Assembly: GCF_054482525.1 (NCBI RefSeq)
Contig: NZ_CM137006.1
Length of the DNA: 64,000 bases
Strand: one strand, 5' to 3'
Shown: positions 63,152 through 63,952 of the stretch, in pieces
Numbering within the stretch: position 1 is the stretch's first letter
Layout of the letters: each line of letters starts with the position of its first letter
Translations under genes and position numbers: made by a program
The notes under the pieces: generated by a model
What the model was told of the DNA's origin: nothing
The model's input: the letters and a program-made list of their open reading frames with translations, nothing else
Database searches by the model: none

Positions 63152-63952
63152 GTGACAGAACCGTTAACCGAAACCCCTGAACTATCCGCGAAATATGCCT
63201 GGTTTTTTGATCTCGATGGAACGCTGGCGGAAATCAAACCGCATCCCGATCAGGTCGTCGTGCCTGACAATATTCTGCAAGGACTTCAGCTACTGGCAAC
63301 CGCAAGTGATGGTGCATTGGCATTGATATCAGGGCGCTCAATGGTGGAGCTTGACGCACTGGCAAAACCTTATCGCTTCCCGTTAGCGGGCGTGCATGGG
63401 GCGGAGCGCCGTGACATCAATGGTAAAACGCATATCGTTCATCTGCCGGATGCGATTGCGCGTGATATTAGCGTGCAACTGCATACGGTCATCGCCCAGT
63501 ATCCCGGCGCGGAGCTGGAGGCGAAAGGGATGGCCTTTGCGCTGCATTATCGCCAGGCTCCGCAGCATGAAGACGCATTAATGACATTAGCGCAACGTAT
63601 TACTCAGATCTGGCCACAAATGGCGTTACAGCAGGGAAAGTGTGTTGTCGAGATCAAACCGAAAGGTACCAGTAAAGGTGAGGCGATTGCTGCTTTTATG
63701 CAGGAAGCTCCCTTTATCGGGCGAACGCCCGTATTTCTGGGCGATGATCTGACCGATGAATCTGGCTTCGCAGTCGTTAACCGGCTGGGCGGAATGTCAG
63801 TAAAAATTGGCACAGGTGCAACTCAGGCATCATGGCGACTGGCGGGCGTGCCGGATGTCTGGAGCTGGCTTGAAATGATAACCACCGCATTACAACAAAA
63901 AAGAGAAAATAACAGGAGTGATGACTATGAGTCGTTTAGTCGTAGTATCTAA
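63152..63952 (+). CDS. otsB: Trehalose-6-phosphate phosphatase OtsB
   Basis: 266-aa product from GTG 63152 ([27 protein letters not shown]..., HAD motif DLDGT). Confidence 0.92.

Follow-up and report, generated by a model that had tools for sequence, protein, structure and literature searches.

At the 3' end of the 64,000-nt stretch of DNA analyzed here (hereafter the window; contig NZ_CM137006.1), the genes otsB and otsA meet in what is, with a probability of roughly 90%, the ordinary junction of the Escherichia coli otsBA trehalose-synthesis operon. This figure applies to a structural statement that comprises the identities of the two genes, the start codon of otsA and the 26-nt overlap between the reading frames; the likelihoods given below for two opposing views of the overlap concern only the degree of translational coupling and stand beside an intermediate reading. 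The overlap is the standard layout of this operon, annotated before and already known. The original prediction had placed the otsA ATG at 63927, inside the 3' end of otsB and 26 nt before the end of its stop codon at 63952, and this placement is upheld both by the sequence and by the RefSeq annotation of the strains PCN033 and K-12.

Identity and Layout of the otsBA Junction

Direct reading of the junction DNA (AACAGGAGTGATGACTATGAGTCGTTTAGTCGTAGTATCTAACCGG) assigns the otsA ATG to 63927-63929 and the otsB TAA to 63950-63952, so that 26 nt are common to both genes in different frames. The otsB stop is built from the otsA Ser8-Asn9 codons (TCT-AAC) and lies 23 nt beyond the otsA start, which corresponds to an intergenic spacing of -26 nt. 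The coordinates of these and the neighboring features are collected in Table 1.

Comparison with reference genomes, which had been proposed as the means of checking the overlap, gave the same 26 nt in both strains examined. The last 1 kb of the window (63000-64000) is 100% identical to E. coli PCN033 and has matches in 5417 of 5426 complete E. coli genomes; within the PCN033 locus, RefSeq places otsB at 2653-3453 and otsA at 3428-4852, equivalent to window positions 63152-63952 and a start at 63927. The layout is identical in K-12 MG1655 (b1897/b1896), where otsA occupies 1980188..1981612 and otsB 1981587..1982387, the stop of the one and the start of the other again falling within 26 shared nucleotides. 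Across the 2.2-kb otsBA region, K-12 and the window strain differ at 38 positions, none of them in 63848-63970. The window belongs to an E. coli lineage other than K-12, with substitutions scattered elsewhere in the two genes and no difference of relevance to the junction.

The gene names are likewise in agreement with the reference annotation and with protein family profiles. OtsB was tested as a trehalose-6-phosphate phosphatase of the HAD-IIB type and scored 540.9 bits against the NCBIfam equivalog model NF007560 (cut-off 327) over residues 1-266 of 266, and 306.8 against TIGR00685 (cut-off 68.05) over residues 12-244; it also aligns end to end with the Salmonella OtsB structure 6UPB, with the YESFSRSI tail included. 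Only the first 24 codons of otsA lie in the window, and they are identical to those of the full gene that was used for profile matching, which was taken from a strain identical over the 1-kb query. Tested as a UDP-forming trehalose-6-phosphate synthase, the full-length OtsA scored 1045.6 bits against NF007513 (cut-off 759; residues 1-474 of 474) and 610.4 against TIGR02400 (cut-off 564.85). Its sequence is identical over residues 1-474 to that of PDB entry 2WTX and is matched over the same range by 1UQT, while 1GZ5 spans residues 2-457; these constructs follow the annotation and are no independent proof of the native OtsA N-terminus.

The list of open reading frames accompanying the sequence starts otsB at a TTG at 62948, which yields 334 amino acids and carries the frame through both the araH terminator and the otsBA promoter. 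This longer version is an artefact that arises when the first start codon following a stop is chosen, and the true otsB start is the GTG at 63152.

Table 1. Features at and around the otsBA junction, with other RNA matches in the window (window coordinates)
Feature	Position	Strand	Description and basis
Terminator-like hairpin 3' of araH	63023..63050	+	11-pair stem with 7 GC pairs and a T-rich tail; between araFGH and otsBA
otsBA promoter (putative)	63064..63091	+	-35 TGGCGA at 63064-63069; -10 TATACT at 63086-63091, preceded by C; 16-nt spacing
otsB Shine-Dalgarno (SD) sequence GGAGG (putative)	63139..63143	+	In GAAGGAGGAG, 8 nt before GTG 63152; from consensus and spacing
otsB CDS (trehalose-6-phosphate phosphatase)	63152..63952	+	266 aa, GTG start, TAA stop; ORF end, RefSeq annotation, NF007560
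otsA SD sequence AGGAG	63914..63918	+	Inside otsB codons Asn-Arg-Ser, 8 nt before ATG 63927
Alternative in-frame otsA starts GTG 63918 and ATG 63921	63918..63923	+	Judged unused
otsA 5' end (trehalose-6-phosphate synthase)	63927..64000	+	24 codons and 2 bases, gene cut by window end; translation, RefSeq start
otsB/otsA dual-frame region	63927..63952	+	26 nt; otsA codons 1-9 (MSRLVVVSN, ninth partial); otsB (Y)ESFSRSI and stop
Rfam matches (sRNAs DsrA and RseX, three-tRNA cluster)	20029-20115, 11604-11693, 53421-53720	+, -, +	

Transcriptional Context

The gene upstream of the operon, araH, ends at 62985 and is followed by the terminator-like hairpin listed in Table 1. A C immediately before the -10 element is typical of sigma-S promoters, and the choice of TATACT as the probable -10 hexamer is based on its sequence and the 16-nt spacing. 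Previous work has described otsBA as one RpoS-dependent operon with TGGCGA as its -35 element (PMC2744996). A pattern scan for an internal promoter serving otsA returned no above-chance match near the junction; its sole 9-of-12 match (63411-63438) was rejected as a candidate, the number of matches being within chance. Similarly, no RNA family was detected near the otsBA junction when the whole window was scanned against Rfam. Elsewhere in the window, the same scan detected two sRNAs, DsrA and RseX, and three clustered tRNA genes, as in an ordinary stretch of E. coli chromosome.

Two Junction Layouts across Enterobacterales

Conservation of the junction was explored by scanning one genome per species with the back-translated OtsA peptide, with no constraint on the start codon or on any third codon position. 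This search yielded 120 loci, 69 of which have an OtsB-like open reading frame ending beside otsA and make up the junction set. The largest class (45 loci) has the 26-nt overlap and includes Escherichia, Salmonella, Citrobacter, Enterobacter, Klebsiella, Kosakonia, Siccibacter, Pluralibacter, Pseudescherichia, Atlantibacter, Buttiauxella, Lelliottia and a few Erwiniaceae. A second class of 19 loci, from Pantoea, Rahnella, Serratia, Brenneria, Hafnia, Rouxiella, Winslowiella, a Piscinibacter and a Rhodospirillales genome, has a 4-nt overlap of the ATGA type. In the remaining five, namely two Rosenbergiella, Erwinia persicina, Pantoea Mb-10 and Brenneria roseae, the genes are separated by a gap of 1-19 nt. 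Judging by the 45 loci of the 26-nt class, which come from other species and nearly all from the one family, this overlap is fixed across Enterobacteriaceae.

The ATGA-type operons (Pantoea, Rahnella, Serratia, Brenneria, Hafnia, Rouxiella) resemble the window in gene order, in the position of the otsA ATG and in having an SD sequence (AAGGAG) at similar spacing, and in both layouts the stop and the start are near one another, only a few nucleotides apart in the ATGA type. They differ in the frame of otsB, which is +1 relative to otsA in the ATGA class and +2 in the 26-nt class: the former stops at the TGA of ATGA, whereas otsB of the window reads on and stops 22 nt later. ATGA-type spacing is the one most typical of termination-reinitiation coupling (PMC10666635).

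Erwiniaceae read near-identical junction DNA (ggtAAGGAGtcaaggttATGag) in one frame or the other, with a 26-nt or a 4-nt overlap as the outcome (e.g., Mixta versus Winslowiella), and an unused ATGA is still carried by 34 of the 45 loci of the 26-nt class. Together, these two observations indicate that the switch from one layout to the other occurs through small indels in the non-conserved tail of OtsB. In agreement with a tail of this kind, the conserved phosphatase core of OtsB (TIGR00685) stops at residue 244 of 266 and gives way to a variable segment with many Q, E and K residues. Variation among the last eight residues coincides exactly with variation at the third codon positions of otsA, which indicates that the sequence of the overlapping OtsB tail is dictated by the conserved OtsA N-terminus. 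By several signs, the tail is dispensable.

Within E. coli, the 81-nt junction (63890-63970) is 100% identical in 5335 of 5417 genomes (98.5%), while only 469 E. coli genomes reach an identity of at least 99% to the window over the surrounding 1 kb. Such local invariance fits the demands that dual coding and an embedded SD sequence would impose. Taken with the identical geometry in 45 loci of other species, it argues that the overlap is more than a product of chance.

Two further observations emerged from the same comparison. For otsA Leu4 (63936-63938), nearly every locus of the 26-nt class and many of the ATGA class use TTA, a rare codon; the choice may stem from selection that keeps the 5' coding end AT-rich and weakly structured, or from a dual-coding constraint. 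In addition, an assembly labelled Chryseobacterium sp. 18061 (CACSKA010000001.1) contains an otsBA junction of the Enterobacteriaceae type, overlapping by 26 nt, together with an OtsB that shares 59% identity with the E. coli protein; the assembly is probably mislabelled or contaminated.

The Translation Start of otsA

Four lines of evidence identify ATG 63927 as the start of otsA. The AGGAG sequence upstream of it, the sole SD sequence at this site, is predicted to form an anti-SD duplex of -7.5 kcal/mol, and an SD sequence is present in all 69 junctions, in both overlap classes, with a mean duplex energy of about -8.5 to -8.7 kcal/mol compared with a background of about -3.4 to -3.9 kcal/mol. 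The conserved OtsA core (TIGR02400) begins at residue 3, an arginine, and two codons before Arg3, at -6, the junctions have ATG in 68 of 69 cases and TTG in the other one. This ATG is the sole possible start in 36 of the 69, and in 48 an in-frame stop within 33 nt bars longer extensions. An in-frame start downstream of the otsB stop, the alternative that the original prediction had itself raised, has no candidate before otsA codon 56, where the next in-frame ATG, GTG or TTG occurs.

The original prediction passed over two in-frame codons just upstream, GTG 63918 and ATG 63921, which would lengthen the protein by two or three residues and the overlap to 32 nt (ATG) or 35 nt (GTG). Both lie 3' of the nearest upstream stops in the otsA frame (63876-63881), and the codon corresponding to ATG 63921, at -12, is ATG in 16 of the 45 loci of the 26-nt class. 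Nevertheless, GTG 63918 overlaps the last base of AGGAG and ATG 63921 begins 2 nt past it, as against 8 nt for 63927; moreover, 22 of the 45 loci have no start codon at -12 (but AAG, ATC, CTG, AAC, ACC, ATA, ACT or, once, TAG), in contrast to the near-universal ATG at -6. RefSeq and the PDB constructs also take 63927, with the reservation about the native N-terminus noted above. On the combined grounds of SD spacing and absence of conservation, both codons were rejected, and initiation at either of them is hardly credible.

Does the Overlap Couple otsA to otsB?

The original prediction had described the overlap as consistent with translational coupling. The overlap itself stands, and as regards coupling the wording holds in a permissive sense: on the sequence evidence, coupling of otsA to otsB translation is plausible. 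A full-text search of a literature collection found no paper testing coupling at otsBA. A further comparison is with the coupled gene pairs of a reporter study in E. coli (PMC10666635), which resemble otsBA in being co-directional operon neighbors with the downstream SD sequence embedded in the upstream coding region. However, the three pairs tested in that study have a spacing of -1 nt and their coupling was measured with reporters, whereas otsBA has a 26-nt overlap.

Two general routes to coupling can be considered, namely the unfolding of an RNA structure by ribosomes translating the upstream gene and the re-initiation of ribosomes that have just terminated. For the first, folding of 63870-63990 in search of a structure masking the otsA start gave a minimum free energy of -16.6 kcal/mol, with a z-score of +0.56 against shuffled sequences, and predicted nothing special. 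Opening the otsA initiation region would take 11.0 kcal/mol, a value that is close to that at the otsB site (10.8 kcal/mol) and falls at the 35th percentile of 295 background mRNA positions in a constrained-ensemble calculation. Given these unremarkable values, an RNA-unfolding model receives no specific support at otsA, although a prediction of this kind leaves room for a structure.

For the second route, termination-reinitiation in E. coli reporters drops steeply with the distance between stop and start, +38 nt removing 80-100% of it, and a genome survey gave -8 to +6 nt as the range for efficient re-initiation, with longer overlaps rare (PMC10666635). The otsBA spacing of -26 nt is outside this range, within which values of -4 or -1 are typical. 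Termination-reinitiation at otsBA would be possible, with a geometry that is not in its favor.

The best reading of these results is an intermediate one. Initiation at ATG 63927 is directed by the AGGAG sequence inside the last otsB codons, with both genes probably carried on one RpoS-dependent mRNA. Ribosomes finishing otsB would cross the otsA start and terminate just beyond it; in passing, they could keep the start unfolded, and some may re-initiate with the help of the SD sequence, resulting in partial positive coupling. Because the SD sequence is strong and the site has no special predicted structure, a large part of otsA translation is expected to be initiated de novo, and coupling would tune expression without being essential to it. 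The contribution of otsB ribosomes to otsA would accordingly be modest, through keeping the site open or through occasional re-initiation. On the other hand, re-initiation would need the ribosome to move backward, since the stop lies past the start, and a ribosome finishing otsB could physically cover the otsA start, causing interference rather than help.

One departure from this intermediate reading is that the overlap has no role in expression. It would then be the neutral by-product of a frame-changing indel in the OtsB tail that sent otsB past an ancestral ATGA stop to the next available one, and otsA would be translated wholly independently from its own SD sequence. The junction read in both frames in Erwiniaceae, the unused ATGA persisting in most loci of the 26-nt class, the free variation of a tail lying outside the OtsB core and the strength and conservation of the otsA SD sequence are all in keeping with such an origin. 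Yet in none of the 69 junctions does the otsB stop end more than 19 nt upstream of the otsA ATG or more than 23 nt past the first base of that ATG, and a long spacer is never seen, which suggests that proximity has been kept. Furthermore, all 45 loci of the 26-nt class have the T that creates the TAA stop, versus 16 of 24 elsewhere, a difference to be read with the caveat that class membership itself requires this T. A purely neutral overlap can be entertained as a tentative possibility.

The opposite view, in which coupling is tight and obligatory, is unlikely. It holds that ribosomes terminating at TAA 63950-63952 step back 23 nt to ATG 63927, so that OtsA would be produced solely along with OtsB and at a fixed ratio to it. 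The overlap itself, the constant nearness of stop and start throughout the junction set, and the consecutive action of the two enzymes in one pathway would suit such an arrangement, and a review describes evidence for scanning by post-termination ribosomes, with the mechanisms still debated (PMC12548453). The exceptional invariance of the junction in E. coli could be cited as well, but it is also explained by dual coding together with the SD sequence. Against obligatory coupling stand the spacing of -26 nt, outside the range for efficient re-initiation in the survey described above, and the availability of de novo initiation from a strong, conserved and optimally spaced SD sequence with no masking structure predicted.

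Lastly, selection might have favored this exact 26-nt overlap in the +2 frame, fixed across Enterobacteriaceae where sister families retain ATGA, as a device giving an OtsB:OtsA ratio other than that of ATGA-type coupling, for example by transient occlusion of the otsA start (negative coupling) or by SD-guided back-stepping and re-initiation. This idea is speculative and quite improbable at present.

Significance and Perspectives

In itself, the overlap is of little import: the operon is well studied, and its reference annotation has included the overlap for decades. The present analysis adds the assurance that otsA starts at 63927 and not at one of the nearby in-frame codons. A mildly new item is the two-frame polymorphism of the otsB-otsA junction across Enterobacterales, in which long and short overlaps occur naturally with a common SD sequence and start, and which could suit tests of how overlap length affects coupling. 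Should the 26-nt overlap prove to be a selected device after all, otsBA would become a natural test case for the role of long overlaps in translational coupling.
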